Assembly (NCBI GenBank): GCA_963832745.1
Contig: CAWHVC010000004.1
Span: forward strand, 192,001-256,000
Direction: 5' to 3'
Source of the DNA: Candidatus Bathyarchaeota archaeon
GTDB taxonomy: Archaea > Thermoproteota > Bathyarchaeia > Bathyarchaeales > Bathycorpusculaceae
Length of the DNA: 64,000 nucleotides
The notes beneath the pieces were generated by a model. It saw only the letters and a list, made by a program, of their open reading frames with translations. It made no database searches and was not told the DNA's origin. How positions within the stretch are numbered: the stretch's first letter is position 1; every line of letters begins with the position of its first letter. Of the stretch, positions 1 through 63,543 are shown piece after piece. The position numbers were made by a program, and so were the translations under genes.

Positions 1-1270
1 AAGACTTGATGTTACAGGAAAAACATTGCTTGGTCTTGGCGAAATCGGGGAATACACGCCTGATCGGGTGCGTGAAGCGTTTGCAAAGTTGGGTTTAACC
101 GACAAAGCCCCGTCTCCAACTACTGTGGATTTGCCCCCAAGACCCCCAAATCTTTGCCCCGGCTGTACACACCGCGCCTTCTATTACGCCCTCAACTCAG
201 TCAATCAACATGTTGCTTGTGACAACACCAAATGCGTCGGCTGCGGCATCTGCGAATACATCTGCTCCTTTGAAAAAGAACAGGCCTTCAATCCCCTTAA
301 ATCAAGAATCCGTGCTATCCGCATTAACCAAATTAACAACACAGCAACAACCTGCAGAGCCTGCTTGGACGCTCCTTGCGTTGCTTCATGCCCCCATAAT
401 GCGCTTTCTAAATCAGTGAAAACCGGCACAATCCTTGTTGATGAAACCAAATGTACAGGTTGTGGCTGGTGTATTGAATCATGCCAATACGGCGCCGTAA
501 CTTTAGACCCAAGCAAAAGAAAAGCAATCATCTGCGACACCTGCCAAGGCGACCCAGCATGTGTAAAATACTGCCCCGAAAACGCCTTAACTTTGGTCGG
601 CAAATCAAACGACAAAATCGTAACAGGTGACATTGGCTGCTATACCCTTGGTGTTTTGCCGCCGTTAAGCACAGTTCAAACCTGTTTATGTATGGGCGGC
701 GGTATCTCGCAGGCTGCAGGGATGATTCATGCAGGCGTAAAAGACAAAGTCTTCGCTGTTCTTGGCGACTCCACGTTTTTCCACGCGGGCATGCCGGGAC
801 TGCTAAACATCGCTTATAACAAGGCTAACGTCTGCGTTATCGTTTCAGATAATCATATAGTTGCAATGACAGGACATCAGCCGACGCCGGCTTCAGGAAA
901 AACCGCTATGGGTGACGACGCCAAAATTGTAAGCATACAAGAAATCGCCAAAAGCGTCGGCATCGACAAAGTCATAACCGTTGACCCCTATGATGTTAAA
1001 GCCACAACAAAAGCTGTCCGAGAAATAATGACGTATGATGGCCCATCAGTAATTGTTTCCCAACGACCCTGCCCACTCCTAAGTGAACGTGGTGCACCCA
1101 GAGAAGTCACAGACAAATGTGGCGGCTGTGGCGTATGCACCACCAACTTTGGTTGCCCCGCAATCACCCAAAACGGTGACCGTGCAGAAATTGACCCAAC
1201 CCTATGCAACGGCTGTGGGGTATGCGAGTCAGTTTGTACTCATGAAGCTATACGGAGGAAGCCCCAGTGA
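1..1270 (+). CDS. iorA: Indolepyruvate:ferredoxin oxidoreductase alpha subunit, 5'-truncated by the window edge, with an inserted polyferredoxin domain
   Basis: RPPNLCPGCTHR, GDIGCYTLG, TPP motif GDSTFFHAG...DNHIVAMTGHQP, C-terminal 2x[4Fe-4S]; frame is open from the window start; followed by iorB. Confidence 0.93.
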   Translation, partial: RLDVTGKTLLGLGEIGEYTPDRVREAFAKLGLTDKAPSPTTVDLPPRPPNLCPGCTHRAFYYALNSVNQHVACDNTKCVGCGICEYICSFEKEQAFNPLKSRIRAIRINQINNTATTCRACLDAPCVASCPHNALSKSVKTGTILVDETKCTGCGWCIESCQYGAVTLDPSKRKAIICDTCQGDPACVKYCPENALTLVGKSNDKIVTGDIGCYTLGVLPPLSTVQTCLCMGGGISQAAGMIHAGVKDKVFAVLGDSTFFHAGMPGLLNIAYNKANVCVIVSDNHIVAMTGHQPTPASGKTAMGDDAKIVSIQEIAKSVGIDKVITVDPYDVKATTKAVREIMTYDGPSVIVSQRPCPLLSERGAPREVTDKCGGCGVCTTNFGCPAITQNGDRAEIDPTLCNGCGVCESVCTHEAIRRKPQ

Positions 1271-7380: not shown

Positions 7381-8607
7381 ATGTCAACTATAAAGTCTGA
7401 AGCAGAACGATGCCTAAAATGCAAAGTGCCCAGCTGTTCCAAGGGTTGTCCTGTTGGAACTCCTATCCCTCAGGTTACGACAAAGTTCTTGGAAGGCAAA
7501 TTGGAAGAAGCAGGCAGGCTGCTTTTCAACAACAACCCCCTATCCGCCATAACCTCAATCGTTTGTCCGCATGACAGAAACTGCAAGGGTCACTGCATAC
7601 TAAACAAGAAAGGTCAACCGGTTGAATTCTATAAAATAGAGCAATACATCTCACGTTTCTATTTGGAAACCTTCCAGCCACCGCAGGTTGAGAGAAACGG
7701 CAAAAAAGTAGCAGTTGTAGGCGCTGGCCCAGCTGGAATAACAGCGAGCATAATTTTAGCGAAAAAGGGTTATTCAATCACTTTATTTGAGGAAATGGAC
7801 AGCATCGGTGGAGCCATGCGTTATGGCATTCCAGAGTTTAGGCTACCTAGAAGCATCTTTGAGTTTTACAGAAAAATTCTTGACTCTTTAAATGTTAAAT
7901 TCCGTCCCAACACCCAGATAGGCACCAATTTTAGCGCTGAAGACATGTTTCTTGATGGTTATGACGCTGTCCTTATTTGCACGGGCACAAACCGACCGAA
8001 CCGTTTCGGTCTTTTAGGTGAAACTTTAGGGCACGTGCATTTTGCTGTTGACTACTTGAGGTCTCCTGACGTCTATAAGCTGGGAAAGAACCTTGTGATT
8101 CTTGGAGCAGGAAACGTGGCTATGGATGCCGCAAGAACCGCCATCAGAAAGCAACACGTCGACGTTACCATTCTCAATTACAGGGCACCAGAGGATGTAA
8201 CGGCAGATAAAGCGGAAGTGGAAATGGCAATGATTGACGGCGTAAAACTGCTTCATAACTGCCAAGTCGTCCGTATCATGGATAATTCTGTCAAGTGCGT
8301 AAAAGTTGATAAAATCATCGCTGAAGACGGTTCAGTGAGTATAAAAGAGGATTTTAAATCTGCGTTTGAATTACCTGCTGAAGCTGTAATTATTGCGATC
8401 GGTCAAGGTCCCGGTTCAGACGTAGTAAGCGTCGGAGGCGCCAAAGTCACACAGAAAGGACTTTTACAGGCGGACGAGTTTGGTCAAACGTCACAAGAAG
8501 GAGTATTCGCTGCAGGAGACGTCGTTACTGGCCCTAGAACGGTAATCGAAGCCATTGCGTCCGCAAAAAAAGCATCAGAAAAAATTGAAGAATACTGTAG
8601 CAAATAA
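7381..8607 (+). CDS. GltD/SudA-like FAD/NAD(P)-dependent Fe-S oxidoreductase
   Basis: EAERCLKCKVPSCSKGCP, VCPHDRNC, GAGPAG, RYGIPEFRLP, GAGNVAMD, FAAGDVVTGP. Confidence 0.88.
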   Translation: MSTIKSEAERCLKCKVPSCSKGCPVGTPIPQVTTKFLEGKLEEAGRLLFNNNPLSAITSIVCPHDRNCKGHCILNKKGQPVEFYKIEQYISRFYLETFQPPQVERNGKKVAVVGAGPAGITASIILAKKGYSITLFEEMDSIGGAMRYGIPEFRLPRSIFEFYRKILDSLNVKFRPNTQIGTNFSAEDMFLDGYDAVLICTGTNRPNRFGLLGETLGHVHFAVDYLRSPDVYKLGKNLVILGAGNVAMDAARTAIRKQHVDVTILNYRAPEDVTADKAEVEMAMIDGVKLLHNCQVVRIMDNSVKCVKVDKIIAEDGSVSIKEDFKSAFELPAEAVIIAIGQGPGSDVVSVGGAKVTQKGLLQADEFGQTSQEGVFAAGDVVTGPRTVIEAIASAKKASEKIEEYCSK

Positions 8608-8788
8608 TTATATTCAATTAGTCGACCAGCAACTAATCTTCAAAATAAGCGTGGATAATGCTCATTTTTCCTCTAGCTTCAATCGTTACCTTTTGTTTCT
8701 TTTTTATTGTCAGGCATTAAATCGGTTAGCTGATTGACCAAAATCTTAATACAAATTAACATGTCTTTTTATCCGACTGGAATTTAAC

Positions 8789-10681
8789 ATGGAGTATGAA
8801 ATCTTTCTGCTTCTTGCAGCCATCTTGCTAATCTTCTTAGATATAGCAGTTTTTTCAAGAACTAAATTTTCTTCTAACCGCTTAAATTATGCGGGCTTTA
8901 TAGCGGCTGCATTTGCTTTCTTGTTGATATTAAGCTCTTACCTGTTGCTTTTGATTGCTTTTGTGAATAACGACTTTTCATTTGTCGGCGTCTACTCTTT
9001 TAGCTCATCAAACTTGTCCCTGTTATCAAAAATTTACGCCAGCTGGGCAGGCGCAGGTGGTTCAATGCTTTTACTAACCATAATTTTAAGCACGTTCTAT
9101 TTTGGGCTCAAAATTGCATCCTTAAAGAACACAGAGAAATTTAAAACACTAACTTGTCAGGTAATGGGTTTTGTTGTTATTGTCTTTACATTGGTATGTT
9201 TACTGAGAAACCCCTTTGAACGACTTCCAGTAGCCGCTGTTGAAGGTTTTGGGCTTAACCCTCAACTGCAGAGTGTATGGATGGCTATTCATCCTCCAAT
9301 TGTCTTTTCAGCTTACGCTTTTGTTGTACTTGCGTTTGCTTTGACAATTGCAAGTTTAAAAACCAACAAAGACATTGATACTTCAAAACTTTTCAAAGTA
9401 TCAACTTATGCTTCTTGGATGCTGCTTACTGTTGGAATAGCTTTAGGCGGTGTTTGGGCGTATGAAGTTTTAGGTTGGGGTGGATATTGGGCTTGGGATC
9501 CAGTAGAAACAGCATCACTATTACCCTGGCTTATTTTAACAGGTTACTTTATTGTAAAATCTATTACAAAAAATCTAAGTCTTACTCGGGAAACACTGAT
9601 TATGCTTACCTTTGCCAGTCTTGTTTTCCTAAGTGCCCTAACCCGTGGAGGGTTAACTCAATCTGTTCACTCGTATGCTGCCTCAGCAATTGGTCCAATA
9701 ATGCTACTGTTTGCTGTAGGTATGATGGGTTACTTTTTTTACTTGGCAAAAAGCAAAAGGAAAAGTTTCTTCAAATTAACGGTTGACAGGAAATCTTTGA
9801 CTTCCCGGTCATCTTTTGTTGGGTTTTGGGCGTTGATTTTTATTTCAATTGTGTGCTTGGTTGGGTTAGCTGTTCCGGATTTTGCTTACAGTTACTGGAC
9901 TTATCCATTTGTCTTGTTGTTTGTTATATCGTTGGTTGGTTTCAGTCTTAACGATAAAATGCATTATGCACGCCAATTCATAATCGTAACCGTAGGGTTG
10001 GTTGCTGGAGTTATTTTTACCTTGTTGGGTTTTGCTTCAGTAAATGTGCTTGTCACTTTAACTGTTCCTTTAATGGTTATAACCTTAGGTGCATTGTTCT
10101 ACAAGCTCGCAACTTCGATAAGGCGACGAACTCTTCTTTGGCAATACCTTTTCGGTATAGCAGTTGTCGTGCTGCTTTTAGGCGTATTTGTAAGTTCAGG
10201 AGCCAAAACTTCTACAACACTTCAAAATGTTAACGTTAACTCTCCAGTACATGCTTCGGACTTAACGGTAACTTTAAGCGATTTGCATGTAAGCAACAGC
10301 ACCACAAGGGTTTACAATACTCAAGTCGAAGGCGTTTTTCCTGAATATTCAATTGTTACTGCAGATGTTTCTGTTCAGGGCTCTGGTTTAAATTATAACG
10401 GTAACTTGCAAGCGGCTTTCTATCCGAATTATGGATTAGTAATTAACCCCCTAATTATCTCCACAATCACAGGTGACATTTACATTCATTTTGAATACAC
10501 TGATTCACTTTACAACTCTTTAACTCAGAATTTGATTGGACAAAGTGTACTTCCCGACAATTTAGCATTAACTATCCAAAATAATCCATTGATTTACTTG
10601 GTTTGGGCAGGTGTGATTCTCATGTTGTTGGCATTGACTGCTGAGTTTATACTTGGAAATAAACAAACAATTAGCCTTTAA
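8789..10681 (+). CDS. ccmF: Cytochrome c maturation haem lyase, CcmF family
   Basis: GLNPQLQ, IHPP, WWD motif WAYEVLGWGGYWAWDPVET, SVHSY; many TMs. Confidence 0.88.
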   Translation: MEYEIFLLLAAILLIFLDIAVFSRTKFSSNRLNYAGFIAAAFAFLLILSSYLLLLIAFVNNDFSFVGVYSFSSSNLSLLSKIYASWAGAGGSMLLLTIILSTFYFGLKIASLKNTEKFKTLTCQVMGFVVIVFTLVCLLRNPFERLPVAAVEGFGLNPQLQSVWMAIHPPIVFSAYAFVVLAFALTIASLKTNKDIDTSKLFKVSTYASWMLLTVGIALGGVWAYEVLGWGGYWAWDPVETASLLPWLILTGYFIVKSITKNLSLTRETLIMLTFASLVFLSALTRGGLTQSVHSYAASAIGPIMLLFAVGMMGYFFYLAKSKRKSFFKLTVDRKSLTSRSSFVGFWALIFISIVCLVGLAVPDFAYSYWTYPFVLLFVISLVGFSLNDKMHYARQFIIVTVGLVAGVIFTLLGFASVNVLVTLTVPLMVITLGALFYKLATSIRRRTLLWQYLFGIAVVVLLLGVFVSSGAKTSTTLQNVNVNSPVHASDLTVTLSDLHVSNSTTRVYNTQVEGVFPEYSIVTADVSVQGSGLNYNGNLQAAFYPNYGLVINPLIISTITGDIYIHFEYTDSLYNSLTQNLIGQSVLPDNLALTIQNNPLIYLVWAGVILMLLALTAEFILGNKQTISL

Positions 10682-57625: not shown

Positions 57626-57829
57626 TATATCACCTCTAAATTGACGTAGACAATATTGCGTCACTTTATATGGCTACATGCCTAATTGCCTATTTGAATA
57701 TGCATGTAAAAACGTGAGAATTGATCATTACTAAAGTGTTGTAAAAATTTTTGTTTATAAGTACGGGTTGAGTATTTTATTAGGACTTGTAAGAGGAGCT
57801 TTTTGCAGGGACAACTGGAGAAAGATGTC

Positions 57830-57964
57830 ATGTTTAATTCCAAGAAATTGTTTGAAGTAACCTATAAATGTAGAGTGTGCTCTGCTCGTTTTAATAATCC
57901 TGACGAATTGAGAATTCACAGCATGGTCAGTCATAAAGGGCATATGCTTGTAATTAAACGCTAA
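57830..57964 (+). CDS. Single C2H2 zinc-finger microprotein (44 aa, absent from the ORF track)
   Basis: MFNSKKLFEVTYKCRVCSARFNNPDELRIHSMVSHKGHMLVIKR fits Y-x-C-x2-C-x3-F-x5-L-x2-H-x4-H; GGAG SD; T8 run after the stop. Confidence 0.75.
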   Translation: MFNSKKLFEVTYKCRVCSARFNNPDELRIHSMVSHKGHMLVIKR

Positions 57965-58593
57965 TTTTTTTGGTTTTGCTTTTTCGAGATTTAATTTAAT
58001 TCCCTTTTTAGTTATTCGACAAAAACTGAAAAAAAGATTTGCAAAAAGAACAAACAAAAAATTGAGCAAAAACGCTTCTATGCTGATGTTGTTGCTGTCT
58101 TCTTTTTGACGTTATCAGTAAAGACCTTTTTTGTAGGTTTCTTCCTGTAGGTGCAATTAAGCCGAATTGATGATTTACATCTGCGGCAATTTTTTACTAA
58201 ACCTGCTCGTAGCATACACAAATTTGTTTACCTCTTGATTTTTTTGAAAAGAATCAGTTATACGGTTAAGCTCAATTTCCTCAAGGGGATAAGAGAAACT
58301 CTTCAGCTTTATGTTTATGTCTTGCTCCCTAATAAAGACGGCAATTCAAGTTTTTTTGAAAATTAAAAAAATTTTGGCTTTTTTGGGTAAAAAGAGTTGG
58401 TATTAAAAATTATTTTCGAAATTTAAGCCTAAAAAAAGGTGTTTTTTTATAGTCACGCTAATATACTCGGGAAAGCCATTATTGTATACTTAGGATTCTT
58501 TAGAGAAAGAGTTATCTCTCTGCTAAATGGTTTGCTTACTTTTTCTCCGATTTATTCTATAAAAGTTGGCAAAAAGCCAAATAGGTTATCTGG

Positions 58594-58899
58594 ATGGGTA
58601 GAAAAAAAATAACTAATGAAGGCAGTCTCGATAATATGGTGCTTCCTTCAGCAAATGATGTTTTAGGCGTTGCAGTAAAAATGCTGGGTGCCGATAGAGT
58701 CACAGTTAAATGTCAAGACGGAAAAGAACGCTTATGCCGAGTTAGAGGCAAACTGAAAAAGCGTGTTTGGATTCGTGAGGGTGACATAGTTCTTGTTTCA
58801 CCTTGGGATTTCCAGCAAGAAACACGCGGAGACATTTTCTGGCGATACAGGAAAAACCAGTCTGATTGGTTAAGAAATCACAATTATCTTACAATGTAA
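58594..58899 (+). CDS. eif1a: Translation initiation factor aIF-1A
   Basis: KMLGADR..C.DGKERLCRVRGKLKKRVWIREGDIVLVSPWDFQ..RGDIFWRY. Confidence 0.95.
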   Translation: MGRKKITNEGSLDNMVLPSANDVLGVAVKMLGADRVTVKCQDGKERLCRVRGKLKKRVWIREGDIVLVSPWDFQQETRGDIFWRYRKNQSDWLRNHNYLTM

Positions 58900-58910
58900 G
58901 GTTTTGACTT

Positions 58911-59075
58911 ATGATTTTGAAATGTACTGAATGTGGGAACACCTTTTCGCGGGAAGTAAAAGACGGCGAGATTGTTTCTTGCCCCATTTGTGAAGCTGCG
59001 TTTAAGGCTACAATTAAAGATGGAAAGGTTCGCTTAGAAGACTTTATTGACGAAGAAGATTTAGGCGAACTCTAA
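58911..59075 (+). CDS. LysW-like zinc-ribbon protein (54 aa, absent from the ORF track)
   Basis: MILKCTECGNTFSREVKDGEIVSCPICEAAFKATIKDGKVRLEDFIDEEDLGEL; CxxC..GEIVxCPxC plus acidic tail. Confidence 0.7.
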   Translation: MILKCTECGNTFSREVKDGEIVSCPICEAAFKATIKDGKVRLEDFIDEEDLGEL

Positions 59076-59095
59076 ATTAGAAACAGGTAATTATT

Positions 59096-59503
59096 TTGGA
59101 TTGCAAATTAAAAATAATGAAAGTAGAACCAAACAAGGATAGTTTTCAAAGTAATTACCGTTTCGCAGTAGTCGATTTTAGCCGATCCGAGAGTTACCCT
59201 TCAAACTTTGTTTGTATGTTACCTGTAAAAATTGCTAAAGGAAAGAAAACTAACATTTTTGAACAAGTTTTTGGGGATGACAGTTTAGTTAAAGCCAAAC
59301 TGCTTTTAAACGATTCTTTAAAGCATGAGCCTGATTTAGCTGTTAAAGCTGAAATAAATAGGCGGCTAGTTTTGCTTGAGCCTAAACTGGTACGTCTTGT
59401 TAGGTGTAGTGGATGTGGTAAACAGTTTAAGCCTAAAGGGTTGCGTAGGTTTAAACGGCATTTCTGTTCAGAGTGTCTGCGTAAAAGATTCGCTTCAAAA
59501 TAG
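59096..59503 (+). CDS. Hypothetical protein with C-terminal C4 zinc finger
   Basis: CSGCGKQF..FCSECLRKR; follows the LysW-like ORF. Confidence 0.7.
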   Translation: MDCKLKIMKVEPNKDSFQSNYRFAVVDFSRSESYPSNFVCMLPVKIAKGKKTNIFEQVFGDDSLVKAKLLLNDSLKHEPDLAVKAEINRRLVLLEPKLVRLVRCSGCGKQFKPKGLRRFKRHFCSECLRKRFASK

Positions 59504-59578
59504 TATGCTTTTTCGCAATATCTTCTAAAGCTTCATAGAGTAGCATTAACTAAACTAAGTGATTGAATTGGTGGTGTT

Positions 59579-59949
59579 GTGAGTTCTAACGCAACTTTAG
59601 GTCTGTTACTGAATATGTTGCCTCTCAACCCGTAACTGTGCAGCCACTTTTGCAGCAGATTCGACAAGCAATCAAAGAAGCCGCACCTGACGCTCAAGAA
59701 GTAATCAGTTACCAAATGCCTGCCTTTAAGCAAGGTGAAGTATTGGTTTGGTATGCAGCTTTCAAAAACCACATCGGCTTTTACCCTAAAACTTCAGTAA
59801 TGGAGCAATTCAAAGACAAATTAGTGCCGTACAAGACAAGCAAGGGCACAATCCAGTTTCCTTATGATAAGCCTCTTCCACTGGGGTTAATTAAAGAAAT
59901 AGTTCAGTTTAGGCTAAAAGAAACTTCTCGGAAAGACTGGCCCGCTTAG
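59579..59949 (+). pseudogene. DUF1801/YdhG-like protein with a -1 frameshift near 59588 (pseudogene or sequencing error)
   Basis: Body ..SVTEYVASQP..IRQAIKEAAPDAQEVISYQMPAF..HIGFYP..SKGTIQFP; adding one A in TCTAACGC joins it to GTG 59579 (MSSKRNF). Confidence 0.65.
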
Positions 59950-60062
59950 AGTCTACTAAATTTTCCTGAGCAAAAATGTGGCTGACGTTTCGCAGTCACA
60001 TATTGTTAAGTAAGTACAGCAGAATTTTTTATTTGCTTTAGATCTTGATGGAGGTGAATTTT

Positions 60063-60651: not shown

Positions 60652-60882
60652 ATGGCTGAATCAATCAAAAAAAGAGTACAAGAAGCACTTGACCAGATTA
60701 GGCCACAAATACAAGGTGACGGCGGAGACGTGGAACTAGTAGCAGTCGAAGGCAATATTGTGAAGGTTCGACTTGTCGGTCACTGTGTAGGTTGTCCTAT
60801 GGCTCAATTGACGCTTAAGAATGGTATTGAAGCTTACGTTAAAGAGCGCGTGCCAGAAATCGAAGCAGTTGAATCAGTATAA
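60652..60882 (+). CDS. NifU C-terminal/Nfu Fe-S carrier domain protein
   Basis: IRPQIQGDGGDVELV..GHCVGCP. Confidence 0.92.
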   Translation: MAESIKKRVQEALDQIRPQIQGDGGDVELVAVEGNIVKVRLVGHCVGCPMAQLTLKNGIEAYVKERVPEIEAVESV

Positions 60883-61049
60883 ATTAATCTGACTCAGCTT
60901 CATGCGCTTTTCTTAAGCATTTTTAGTCTGTTTTTCATTTTTTATCCTAATTCGGCTGGTTTATGTGTGTTTAATTTGGCTAAAAATCTTTAAGCGTTCA
61001 CTTCTTATACTTGTGTTCTAAACTGAATTGGATAGTGGATATTCAACCC

Positions 61050-62489
61050 ATGTCAAATTCGACCTCGAAATATTTCCGCTTAAAGCTTTGGCAACGTGAA
61101 TCCGGCGCACTTTGGCTACCATTTGAGCATGAAAGAATCAGAGAATTCTCAAACATAAAAGTCAACGAGCAAGTCACCGTAAGCGGATACGTAAAATGGG
61201 TTGACAGCGCCGTGTTTGCCTTGGTGCCCACTCCTTTTTCAAACCAGACTTTCCTGTCCTGTATTAATTATTCGAAATCTTGCCCAGCAGAAAACGAGTA
61301 TGTAACTGTCTCGGGGCATTCCAAACTAGCTAATTATAGACCATTATCATCTCGTTCACGCCGTTTCAACGGTGACTTAATCATTGAAGTATACAATTGG
61401 GTAAACGACAAACCAGCTATGGAACTGCCCCAACTCAATTTTGACTACAAAAATTTCCGTCAAGGCTTAACCTCCCGTATAGAAGGCTTAGAACCGCAAA
61501 TCTGCGATTTCATTGCTTTTTCCGCCATAAGCTCACCAGCTTTTCTTGATAGTTTGGGCGGATTAAACATGACAATGTACGACTCTACAAAGGCAAATTT
61601 GCCAGCTAAAGTCGTACGCGAACTCAAGGCAATTATTCCCCAGGACATGGGTAGCATGCAACGTGTTGAAACCCCTTATGGCAGGTTCCAGTTGCGTTAC
61701 AAGTACGCTTTTATTTCCCAAGACGCCGATAAACCCCTATCCGCGAAGACTGCAGATTTGCTTAGTCACAAAAACTCTAGACTACCCCCAGACACTGAAC
61801 TGTCTATGTCACTTTTTAGCAAGAATAGCCAACCCGTTTCCATAGAGGACCCCTCATGCAGCCTCAGCGACGTTCCAACTGTTCTTCCCGAGGACACCAG
61901 CGTTAACCGTTCAAGACCTGTAATTGACCAGTTCGACGCCCTCAAATTCATGATGGTTAACCACATGAAAACCCCTGTGATCAACGATTTGCAGTCTTCA
62001 CAGGAACAGATTGTTGATGGCTTAGAAAAACTGGTCGATAGCTACGGTCTCGACCCAGCGCATCTGAGCAAGTATGGGTTTTTAAGCGCCAGTTACAACG
62101 CCAAACCGCAATCGGTGCTGAGGGAATCCCTTGCGTATGCTCGGGCAAACGACGTCCATGTTGCGGGTCCAGATTTGACTGGAAAAGTGTTTAAGGATTT
62201 TTTTGAATGGAACTTCAAATACGTTTACGAAATCTGGGAAGACCTGCTTGCCACAAAAATAACTACCCAGAAAAACCTTGCTTCACTCAACATCAAGTAC
62301 AGAGATATTATTCGTATCATCAGAAAATATCATTCAACCCATGAGCCGGGAGCCAAAAAAATCTGTATCTTAAAAGAAGCAAAAACTCCACCTCACGAAA
62401 CTGAAAACCTGCTTAAAGAGTGCTTAAACGAGGGCATCATTTATGAGCCAATGTTTGAAGTCTACCGTTTAACAAGAGAACTCGCCTAA
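61050..62489 (+). CDS. Hypothetical protein; degenerate MCM-like architecture (OB fold, inactive AAA+, winged helix)
   Basis: OB-like VTVSGYV/VTVSGH strands; SRIEGLE..IAFS, GGLNMTMYD, QSVLRESLAYAR, LNEGIIYEP resemble MCM segments. Confidence 0.55.
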   Translation: MSNSTSKYFRLKLWQRESGALWLPFEHERIREFSNIKVNEQVTVSGYVKWVDSAVFALVPTPFSNQTFLSCINYSKSCPAENEYVTVSGHSKLANYRPLSSRSRRFNGDLIIEVYNWVNDKPAMELPQLNFDYKNFRQGLTSRIEGLEPQICDFIAFSAISSPAFLDSLGGLNMTMYDSTKANLPAKVVRELKAIIPQDMGSMQRVETPYGRFQLRYKYAFISQDADKPLSAKTADLLSHKNSRLPPDTELSMSLFSKNSQPVSIEDPSCSLSDVPTVLPEDTSVNRSRPVIDQFDALKFMMVNHMKTPVINDLQSSQEQIVDGLEKLVDSYGLDPAHLSKYGFLSASYNAKPQSVLRESLAYARANDVHVAGPDLTGKVFKDFFEWNFKYVYEIWEDLLATKITTQKNLASLNIKYRDIIRIIRKYHSTHEPGAKKICILKEAKTPPHETENLLKECLNEGIIYEPMFEVYRLTRELA

Positions 62490-62556: not shown

Positions 62557-63543
62557 ATGAATACTGATTACGTTATTGAAACAAAACAGTTGAGAAAAAC
62601 ATTTGTTTCAAAAGAACACGGCGAAAAAAAGACACTTGAAGCCGTAAAAGGCGTAGATTTAACAGTTAAAAGAGGTCAAATTTTTGGTTTTCTTGGTCCA
62701 AACGGCGCTGGAAAATCAACTACACAAAAAATGCTTTCCACACTTATGCGTCCAAGTAGTGGTGAAGCAAAAGTTTTGGGTTACGATTTAGTTGAGCAGC
62801 AAGAACAGATTCGGCAAAACGTCGGTTTTGTAAGTCAAGCTGGCGGCGCTGATTTAGCTTCTACTGGAACAGAGAACCTGATTTTACAAGCCCAACTCTT
62901 CGGTATTGACGAAGTAACTGCTAAAAAATCTGCAGAAGAATTTTCACAACGATTCCAAATGACCAGCTATGTAAGTCGTCCAGCATCGACTTATTCGGGT
63001 GGTCAGAAAAGACGTTTAGACATCGCTCTTGGCATGATTCATCATCCAAAGCTACTATTGCTTGATGAACCAACTACGGGTCTTGACCCTCAAAGCCGAG
63101 CGTACCTATGGATAGAAATCCAGAAGCTCAAAACCGATGGCATCACCATATTCTTAACTACACAGTACATGGATGAAGCCGATAAGCTCTGTGATTCAAT
63201 CGCAATTATTGACCACGGCCAAATCATAGTAATTGGTACACCTGACGAGTTAAAAAGTTCCGTAGGCGGCGACACAATCGTTTTTAGTTTTGATTCTTCT
63301 GGGGTTGCATGTAAAGCTGAAGCGTTGCTTAATGAGCATGTTAAATTTGAGAGGCTTCAAGTCACTGAAAATTCAGTTTATCTCACAATTAAGGATGGCG
63401 AGCGCACCCTGCCCGATTTACTGCGTTTGCTTGACGGTTCCGGTTTGCAGGTACAGGGTGTAACGCTTTCTCGGCCAAGTTTGGATGATGTTTTCCTAAA
63501 ATATACTGGTCGCTCACTTCGAGAGGATGGTAAAAAACAATGA
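62557..63543 (+). CDS. ABC exporter ATP-binding subunit, DrrA-like
   Basis: GPNGAGKST, YSGGQKRRL, LLLDEPTTGLDP, C-terminal SLDDVFL..TG. Confidence 0.93.
   Translation: MNTDYVIETKQLRKTFVSKEHGEKKTLEAVKGVDLTVKRGQIFGFLGPNGAGKSTTQKMLSTLMRPSSGEAKVLGYDLVEQQEQIRQNVGFVSQAGGADLASTGTENLILQAQLFGIDEVTAKKSAEEFSQRFQMTSYVSRPASTYSGGQKRRLDIALGMIHHPKLLLLDEPTTGLDPQSRAYLWIEIQKLKTDGITIFLTTQYMDEADKLCDSIAIIDHGQIIVIGTPDELKSSVGGDTIVFSFDSSGVACKAEALLNEHVKFERLQVTENSVYLTIKDGERTLPDLLRLLDGSGLQVQGVTLSRPSLDDVFLKYTGRSLREDGKKQ

Follow-up and report, generated by a model that had tools for sequence, protein, structure and literature searches.

The present study reveals that a gene in a 64,000-nucleotide stretch of DNA from Candidatus Bathyarchaeota archaeon (assembly GCA_963832745.1, contig CAWHVC010000004.1, positions 192,001 to 256,000; hereafter the window) encodes a paralogue of the replicative helicase MCM that is both shortened and catalytically dead. 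Archaeal MCM is usually regarded as a single active homohexamer. The protein described here, which we call dead MCM, retains four MCM elements, namely the OB fold, the lid, the MCM-type winged helix, and, in shrunken form, an AAA+-like core. Missing from it are Walker A and Walker B, the zinc finger, N-terminal subdomain A, and presumably much of the DNA-translocating hairpin region. Therefore, it cannot be a motor. An initial annotation, made from the letters alone, had called the gene a degenerate MCM-like pseudo-ATPase, and this description is borne out by the fold match together with the sequence homology in the lid and winged helix.

An AlphaFold2 model of the window protein was built from a 51-sequence alignment (mean predicted local distance difference test score, pLDDT, 78.8; predicted template-modelling score, pTM, 0.76). 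Foldseek against the PDB gave at least 457 matches at E ≤ 0.001 (best E 5.8e-15; 500-630 alignment columns), and among the matches listed, every chain belonged to the MCM family (MCM2-7, archaeal MCM, or MCM8/9). On re-alignment with VIA, chain 8w0f_7 superposed over 310 residues (model 31..393 on MCM7 147..645; Z 20.1; root-mean-square deviation, rmsd, 9.1), and chain 8q6p_7, for the ATPase tier only, over 229 residues (Z 19.3, rmsd 3.2). With the Sulfolobus solfataricus and Pyrococcus furiosus chains, model residues 31..397 aligned on chain residues 107..603. Since the model range thus begins at the OB fold of these MCMs, subdomain A is absent. The structure prediction and Foldseek comparison envisaged in the initial annotation therefore returned an OB, AAA+-like, and winged-helix fold with the MCM family on top.

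A second structure search, independent of Foldseek and covering 48,161 representative chains, placed MCM family chains in all top 11 positions (Z 14.1-18.2). The core region (model 129..397) fitted 4r7z_A with Z 18.2, rmsd 4.0, and 242 aligned residues, and the first non-MCM matches after the top 11 were RavA (Z 13.2), a MoxR-like ATPase (10.2), and BchI (10.1). The C-terminal domain matched MCM winged helices (2ma3, Z 10.0, rmsd 1.9, 63 aligned; 2m45, Z 9.9) and, in this independent search, the winged helices of RPA32 also. The N-terminal part matched MCM N-terminal domains (4me3_A, Z 8.5, rmsd 3.2, 86 aligned, model 31..121; 1ltl_A, Z 8.3). The overall MCM order of OB, AAA+ core, lid, and winged helix is present in the model, with Z values up to 20.1.

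By itself, the window protein sequence had no sequence match in the PDB and no significant match in Pfam or NCBIfam; in Pfam, E ≤ 10 gave a chance SHIRT hit only. Homology to MCM emerged from two profiles, A1 for the family and A2 for the broader family. The A1 profile matched 2m45_A, the S. solfataricus MCM winged helix (4.1e-6), 4fdg_B (9.5e-5), and 8x7t_D (6e-4) in the PDB, and the A2 profile matched 4fdg_B (5.6e-8) and 2m45_A (3.3e-7). These matches cover the MCM lid and winged helix, which are the best-preserved part of dead MCM. Local-mode hhalign of the family against 30 Bathyarchaeial MCMs gave 93% probability (E 2.8e-7, 120 columns), and with the broader family 96% (E 2.3e-9, 111 columns, the last ~115 residues); the homology runs from residue 354 onward. 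Over 401 genomes of the phylum Thermoproteota, A2 matched 37 canonical MCM genes at E ≤ 1e-8 (best 3.2e-12), always at profile positions of about 356-471, with two matches beginning at 284 and 299. The frames concerned are about 620-915 amino acids long or are ended by a contig edge. In PHROGs, too, only the lid and winged helix matched, in a family of MCM-like helicases. In the ESM-Atlas, the family is most similar to unnamed archaeal clusters (0.96-0.97), followed by viral MCM-like clusters (0.88-0.89) and an MCM-BP cluster (0.83-0.84); all named clusters fall under the lead threshold of 0.9.

The window protein gives no PF00493 match, and a genome-wide search with PF00493 finds a single gene in the host, the canonical MCM on contig 3. 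This host MCM has 678 amino acids and carries SRFD and ARQLE. At 479 amino acids, dead MCM is much shorter, as the initial annotation had said. That annotation had quoted four peptide strings as collinear with MCM. All of them occur in the translation (LTSRIEGLEPQICDFIAFSAISS at residues 140-162, GGLNMTMYDSTKANL..VVRELKAIIP at 170-197, KPQSVLRESLAYAR at 352-365, and LKECLNEGIIYEP..VYR at 454-473), and they go beyond chance, with G170, G171, Y177, D178, P197, P353, R358, and R365 invariant in 51 homologues. The alignment of 51 sequences holds 43 invariant columns. A low-stringency hhalign extension gives the same pairings with MCM as were then proposed, although the per-column confidence there is low. 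In this extension, GGLNMTMYDSTKANLPAKVV pairs with a 20-residue stretch of the host MCM, NEQVTVSGYVKWV with the first OB strand, FDYKNFRQGLTSRIEGLEPQICDFIAFSAISS with PYVHKKIMSAIAPSIFGNEHLKEAVMYLLFGG, and GGLNMTMYDSTKANLPAKVVRELKAIIPQDM with a 31-residue MCM stretch; GGLNMTMYDSTKAN aligns there to a 17-residue MCM stretch.

The destruction of Walker A and the lack of Walker B held up, as neither motif stands at the aligned positions. The P-loop position reads YDSTK, YDATE, or YDSTT. The lysine is not conserved, and position 181 varies among K, E, T, and Q. The Walker A pattern occurs in 0 of 29 distant family members. In 20 Asgard copies, there is no Walker A at the aligned position, and the sole match to the pattern sits in the C-terminal extension of one 716-residue frame. 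For Walker B (hhhDE), the candidate strand, whose equivalence we infer from the order of secondary-structure elements, reads ELSMSLFSK and has no conserved acidic pair. Two of the 29 distant members bear the Walker B pattern, both at unrelated positions. No SRFD stands at a collinear position in the low-confidence sequence alignment, where VIDQFDAL (residues 291-298) and A-[KR]-P (351-353) could be what is left of the arginine finger and sensor 2. The zinc finger, whose cysteines C137, C140, C159, and C164 are conserved in Bathyarchaeial MCMs, is replaced by a short loop with a single near-invariant cysteine, C71. From the end of the OB fold to the lid, dead MCM has roughly 180 residues vs about 300 in MCM. 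From these lengths and the order of secondary-structure elements, much of the region with the pre-sensor-1 hairpin must presumably be gone.

Thus, canonical archaeal MCM and dead MCM share the domain order, the fold (Z 17-20), and significant sequence homology in the lid and winged helix. In contrast, canonical MCM (678 residues in the host, against 479) has subdomain A, a Cys4 zinc finger, and Walker A/B, all of which dead MCM is without, and dead MCM has a core about 120 residues shorter and no PF00493 match. Furthermore, dead MCM is sporadic rather than universal in Thermoproteota. Other AAA+ proteins with a helix-2 insert, such as RavA/MoxR, BchI, and BrxL, have a core that superposes on the model (Z 13.2, 10.1, and 9.9 for RavA, BchI, and BrxL), but these values are clearly below those of MCM, and the proteins lack the MCM-type context of OB fold and winged helix.

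Two known proteins come closer in kind. In one report, MCM-BP is described as a remote relative of MCM that acts by binding to MCM subunits and has neither Walker A/B nor the arginine finger (PMC10317167). The window family is also without Walker A/B, and a weak in silico co-fold signal of the window protein with MCM may be a further likeness. Unlike the window protein, which is archaeal and has 479 residues, MCM-BP is eukaryotic and longer. PF09739 (MCM_bind) gave no match to the window protein at E ≤ 10 and is missing from the 25 families (of 50) that were listed for 46 members, and the ESM-Atlas similarity of MCM-BP to the window family lies below the threshold. No specific link to MCM-BP (PF09739) was found, and common descent with MCM-BP would be conjectural. 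The initial wording, possibly an archaeal analogue of MCM-BP, is plausible. Another report presents Methanopyrus kandleri MCM2 (3F8T) as an inactive archaeal MCM homologue that has natural internal deletions and no conserved Walker A (PMC2933578). With 459 residues in its PDB entry, it is about as long as dead MCM; neither protein conserves Walker A, and 3f8t_A matches the model structurally (Z 16.7, rmsd 6.2, 298 aligned, 8% identity). 3F8T is absent from the PDB sequence matches at E ≤ 10 of both A1 (12 hits) and A2 (58 hits), and, in contrast to M. kandleri MCM2, the window family ranges over Bathyarchaeia, Methanomethylicia, and Asgard archaea. The window family is of the same kind as MCM-BP and M. 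kandleri MCM2 and a member of neither. In the literature searched, with subscription journals outside its scope, no description of the family was found, and only eukaryotic MCM-BP and M. kandleri MCM2 surfaced. In its available portion, a 2025 survey of the Asgard replisome has MCM present mostly in a single copy, and neither MCM-BP nor an inactive paralogue comes up there (PMC12680538).

All 41 sampled genomes of the class Bathyarchaeia carry canonical MCM. In five genomes (G019, G031, G008, G002, and G039), the PF00493 match of canonical MCM comes in two pieces within frames of 1100-1230 amino acids, the pattern expected of an intein or another large insertion in the ATPase domain. Dead MCM has another distribution. 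The 20 matches at E ≤ 0.001 in 301 Bathyarchaeia genomes comprise eight full-length members, one partial match, and 11 C-terminal parts of canonical MCMs, and eight family members were found in the 401 genomes of the phylum. The carriers seen in the host genus are G000, G307, and, with a divergent copy at a different locus, G127.

The window gene sits between a NifU-like gene and an ABC-transporter operon. The order NifU, dead MCM, ABC recurs in four loci of close relatives (L044, L045, L046, and L051) and in G307. Fourteen loci with an orthologous ABC ATPase (74-100% identity) were compared: the dead-MCM gene lies upstream of the ABC ATPase in two (G000 and G307), NifU adjoins the ABC gene in three (G102, G305, and G323, with spacers of 320, 98, and 124 nt), and neither gene is inside the 1.5-kb flank in nine. 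The NifU-ABC spacer of G102 contains no dead-MCM remnant and retains short stretches like the dead-MCM upstream region and the ABC promoter. The dead-MCM gene is thus a one-gene presence/absence polymorphism at the NifU-ABC junction; gain there is the simpler reading, and loss in G102 is the other possibility. No convincing flanking direct repeats or target-site duplications were found around the window gene. The window copy belongs to a branch that is moving between Bathyarchaeia genomes as a stand-alone gene.

The neighbourhoods of the window-type subfamily were compared over 71 loci (the window's own, 17 genome loci, and 53 metagenome loci). A neighbour family is shared by five of them at most, and those five are close synteny groups. 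The annotated neighbours in other genomes mix metabolic genes with mobile- or defence-type genes (PIN, HepT/MNT, AbiEii, PLD/DrmC-like, Mrr, NucS-like, IS200/DDE transposases, and a Cas1 fragment); a PolB fragment is also found among the neighbours in other loci. In two unrelated contigs, the gene just upstream of a family member or fragment, and on its strand, encodes a GajB-like UvrD helicase (L056:368-3064 and L059:5168-7937); in L059, this helicase is fused to a PD-(D/E)XK/Cas4-like nuclease.

Such surroundings invite the thought that the family is a conflict gene, either a virus- or plasmid-derived MCM mimic that jams host initiation or a host decoy or sensor, residing in variable regions resembling defence islands. 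The patchy distribution, the presence or absence of a single gene between NifU and the ABC gene, the divergent copies at different loci in one genus (G000 and G127), and the PIN, HepT/MNT, AbiEii, GajB-like helicase, transposase, and similar neighbours elsewhere would all fit, as would a viral contig that carries a family member beside a replication module, and the nearest named ESM-Atlas clusters are viral MCM-like, albeit below the 0.9 threshold. Nevertheless, we consider this explanation unlikely. No neighbour recurs outside the close synteny groups, and the Asgard branch of the family, described below, is vertically inherited, core, and fixed in its neighbourhood. In PADLOC 2.0, none of 14 family members has a relevant match; one gives a weak CARF_HEPN match (E 0.0018) over the winged-helix region. 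The family is also without a match in 50,697 phage records and 72,556 plasmid records. Among 2.9 million viral contigs, the A1 profile matched one, the 9142-nt IMG/VR contig L092, whose member (8512-9141; 42% identity over residues 69-275) lies beside a replication module upstream (exonuclease, Sak4-like ATPase, SSB, N6_N4 methylase, UDG-PolA, and DUF3987 primase-helicase). This copy is without the first ~65 residues in every frame and is ended by the contig edge, and its homology starts abruptly. It may therefore be host DNA beside a provirus, that is, a provirus-host junction.

Beyond the Bathyarchaeia, members named by their source come from Methanomethylicia (39% identity) and from 'Asgardarchaeia' and Thorarchaeota (22-24% identity). 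When A2 was run over 301 genomes of the Asgard phylum that holds locus L056, 81 had full-length matches at E ≤ 1e-15, and in one Asgard class, the family is present in 85 of 87 genomes. A quick IQ-TREE tree of 79 sequences, rooted at the midpoint for drawing purposes only and with long branches flagged, unites the 20 genome-derived Asgard copies in one clade (SH-aLRT 100) on a long stem. The clade includes a protein whose cluster mates are named Thorarchaeota, and several further deep branches contain TACK and metagenome sequences. Because of the midpoint rooting and the long branches, we claim no direction of transfer. The two 'Asgard'-labelled copies near the window protein (L053 and L056) are on contigs of 2.8 and 6.5 kb and are nested among Bathyarchaeial sequences.

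The 20 Asgard loci (L105-L124) share one gene order: an NYN-domain protein, an Fe-S protein, a DNA methyltransferase, and dead MCM, followed downstream by gelsolin (other strand), an Fpg/Nei glycosylase, an M20 peptidase, a luciferase-like enzyme, Ham1, and TrmB. In the Asgard branch, dead MCM is a core gene, inherited vertically and with a fixed set of neighbours. The protein of this branch matches the NCBIfam MCM model at positions 560-681 only (E 4.5e-4). The AlphaFold model of an Asgard member (pLDDT 63.7) has a weak core, with residues 174-293 mostly below 50; MCM chains alone are on top of its Foldseek matches (best E 1.1e-6), which, given this core, are supportive only. In one of these loci, L122 (G910:C1:156825-158048), the dead-MCM match extends to profile position 428 and lies within a 716-residue frame. 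Further along, this frame bears an ABC-type GPNGAGKS, and either a fusion or a read-through is possible.

In 19 of the 20 Asgard loci, the methyltransferase gene directly precedes dead MCM on the same strand, with gaps of -74 to +59 nt. The two genes often overlap or lie within 35 nt, and one such pair is at L115:6937-9374. The methyltransferase matches PF01555 (N6_N4; E 5e-37) and, both below the cut-offs of the models, the NCBIfam CcrM model (E 1.7e-30) and an adenine-specific model (8.2e-28). The Asgard dead-MCM gene is apparently co-transcribed with a CcrM-like methyltransferase. This link was unforeseen in the initial annotation and points to a partly different biology. It also raises the possibility that dead MCM is a methylation partner, which targets or regulates the methyltransferase or reads methylated DNA through its OB fold and winged helix, without MCM, the Bathyarchaeial copies serving an unlinked methyltransferase. 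The adjoining N6_N4 gene in the Asgard loci speaks for it, as does the N6_N4 methylase about 5 kb upstream on the viral contig. However, such a methyltransferase is adjacent in 0 of the 71 window-type loci, the window genome is without an orthologue, and what the protein most resembles is the MCM lid and winged helix rather than a methylation reader. We regard a role of this kind as improbable.

The family is old and conserved. A word-indexed search returned 102 homologues at E ≤ 0.001, mostly of 459-493 amino acids and with identity down to 36%. No Pfam domain is precomputed for any of them, and those with a name are 'hypothetical protein' entries from metagenome-assembled genomes of Bathyarchaeia; the same search with A2 added six further distant proteins only. 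Exhaustive phmmer over 1.84 billion representatives gave 81 proteins, 59 of them at E ≤ 1e-10, and the full-length members remain about 470-490 amino acids long at 22-30% identity. Over 46 sequences down to 18% identity, G46, P79, G170, G171, D274, and R365 are invariant, and E26, C71, E250, P276, P309, P353, and S355 are among the near-invariant residues. Several of the (near-)invariant residues G170, G171, D274, E250, P276, P353, S355, and R365 lie in the pseudo-AAA+ core, which could suggest that the nucleotide pocket was rebuilt as a different active site around E250, D274, D178, and the SSP..GG motif. That dead MCM is such a new enzyme seems very unlikely to us, since no catalytic family matches in Pfam, NCBIfam, PADLOC, or PHROGs and the conservation equally fits structural or interface roles.

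Selection was measured as the ratio of nonsynonymous to synonymous substitution rates (dN/dS). The 10 pairs formed by the window gene and four orthologues gave 0.051-0.086, and the 6 pairs within another group of four gave 0.059-0.105; synonymous sites are saturated in comparisons across both groups. A sporadic, decaying remnant of a mobile-element MCM had been named at the outset as a ground for refutation. The sporadic part is real, with presence/absence in Bathyarchaeia (8 of 301 genomes), while the decaying part fails on strong purifying selection and the age of the family. Although a functionless remnant would suit the sporadic occurrence and the split or fragmentary copies in some contigs, it has almost no probability left, and for the window copy it is excluded by dN/dS of 0.05-0.10 and conservation (full-length in 102 homologues to 36% and in representatives to about 22% identity), besides the near-universal presence in the Asgard class (85/87).

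What, then, could a dead MCM do? We judge it an even call that it is a non-enzymatic adaptor or regulator docking on MCM, its loader, or DNA. In this proposal, the protein would bind through its MCM-like surfaces to the single MCM of the host, to the Orc1/Cdc6 loader, or to DNA, and would serve as an accessory regulator or adaptor of replication, much as MCM-BP does in eukaryotes. In archaea, the MCM winged helix reportedly contacts Orc1 in loading, and the winged helices of eukaryotic MCM contact ORC/Cdc6 and Cdt1. Since the Asgard core gene pairs with a CcrM-like adenine methyltransferase, the ancestral task may have been to couple DNA methylation to the replication machinery. A more far-reaching scenario, which we consider unlikely, would make an ancient dead MCM a core replication-linked factor of one Asgard class (two cluster members are source-named Thorarchaeota), where it would be co-transcribed with the methyltransferase and would tether methylation or licensing control to MCM. 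The Bathyarchaeial copy would be a horizontally spread offshoot still docking on MCM, and the family a prokaryotic counterpart, conceivably a forerunner, of MCM-BP-type regulation.

Docking was addressed by co-folding the window protein with residues 100-600 of the host MCM in three runs, alongside three controls. The median interface score (ipSAE) was 0.49 (runs 0.49, 0.00, and 0.54), and the best of the three controls reached 0.00. Of 157 solved complexes, 116 reach the mark applied, as do 2 of 215 mismatched pairs; at scores of 0.60 or under, just 18 of the 157 solved complexes do so, together with both mismatches. Contact agreement between runs was at least 0%, and the partner pLDDT was at least 71. 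The co-folding check suggested at the outset thus came out with a median above the controls but weak, with one run at 0.00, and the pass may reflect likeness to solved MCM-MCM interfaces.

Several observations weigh against a role of dead MCM as a replication adaptor. The co-fold signal is weak, one of its three runs being 0.00. No replication gene recurs as a neighbour in the 71 window-type loci. The window genome is without an orthologue of the Asgard methyltransferase, the best match having 34% identity over 77 residues. The family is rare in Thermoproteota (8 of 301 and 8 of 401 sampled genomes), and being absent from most genomes of the host genus, it is no general part of the replisome there. 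Split or fragmentary copies occur in L052, L058, L059, L060, L139, L148, and L165. Lastly, the residue-level motif assignments in the AAA+ core come from a low-confidence alignment and the order of secondary-structure elements.

The features of the locus are collected in Table 1. The open reading frame runs from ATG 61050 to the stop at 62489 and translates into 479 amino acids plus stop. The ATG at 61050 is taken as the start because orthologues begin MSNSSSKYF at this position; an in-frame TTG upstream, at 61011, is unlikely as a start codon. The N-terminal segment of residues 1-30 lies outside the MCM-aligned range, which begins at residues 28-31, and has low to middling pLDDT (42-74); its conserved residues are W14, R16, G19, W22, F25, and E26. 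In the upstream intergenic region, the arms of the inverted repeat, CTTAAGCATTTTTAG and CTAAAAATCTTTAAG, lie at 60912-60926 and 60980-60994 with 53 nt between them, and parts of the spacer recur in the NifU-ABC spacer of a relative without the dead-MCM gene. This A+T-rich region with its inverted repeat is a putative promoter.

Table 1. Positions in the window of the dead-MCM gene, its parts, and its flanks
Feature	Position	Strand	Basis
Whole coding sequence of the dead-MCM paralogue (479 amino acids + stop)	61050..62489	+	Open reading frame, translation, homologues, dN/dS
N-terminal family-specific segment, residues 1-30, in place of MCM subdomain A	61050..61139	+	Conservation, pLDDT
OB fold, equivalent to MCM N-terminal subdomain C, without zinc finger	61140..61412	+	Model strands 41-119
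Pseudo-AAA+ alpha/beta core, shrunken, residues 129-311	61434..61982	+	Structural alignment of model 129..397
Walker A strand/loop remnant GGLNMTMYDSTKAN, residues 170-183, no GK[ST]	61557..61598	+	Conservation, hhalign extension
AAA+ lid-like helical domain, residues 312-400, with KPQSVLRESLAYARA helix	61983..62249	+	hhalign from residue 354
C-terminal winged helix, MCM/RPA32 type, residues 411-476	62280..62477	+	Profile and structural matches
Upstream intergenic region, A+T-rich stretches and 15-nt inverted repeat	60883..61049	.	Sequence and repeat scan
Left flank, NifU-like gene	60652..60882	+	PDB sequence matches to NifU-like proteins, E 1.4e-25
Right flank, ABC-transporter ATPase gene	62557..63543	+	GPNGAGKST, SGGQKRR, LLLLDEPT in translation

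Elsewhere in the window, positions 57700-58590, a stretch where G+C is at its lowest for the window (0.367 for 58001-60000), hold only short, unconvincing open reading frames, just upstream of the aIF1A gene (58594-58899), the identity of which was confirmed by PDB comparison.

With a conserved dead MCM paralogue, archaeal replication would gain a further level of regulation. The interest of the family rests on its core-gene status in Asgard archaea and on the methyltransferase link, as it is near-universal in one Asgard class and tied there to a cell-cycle-type DNA methyltransferase, and it is mobile among Bathyarchaeia. The finding opens the question of the origin of non-catalytic MCM relatives such as MCM-BP. 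It likewise opens the question of whether archaea couple DNA methylation to the replisome.

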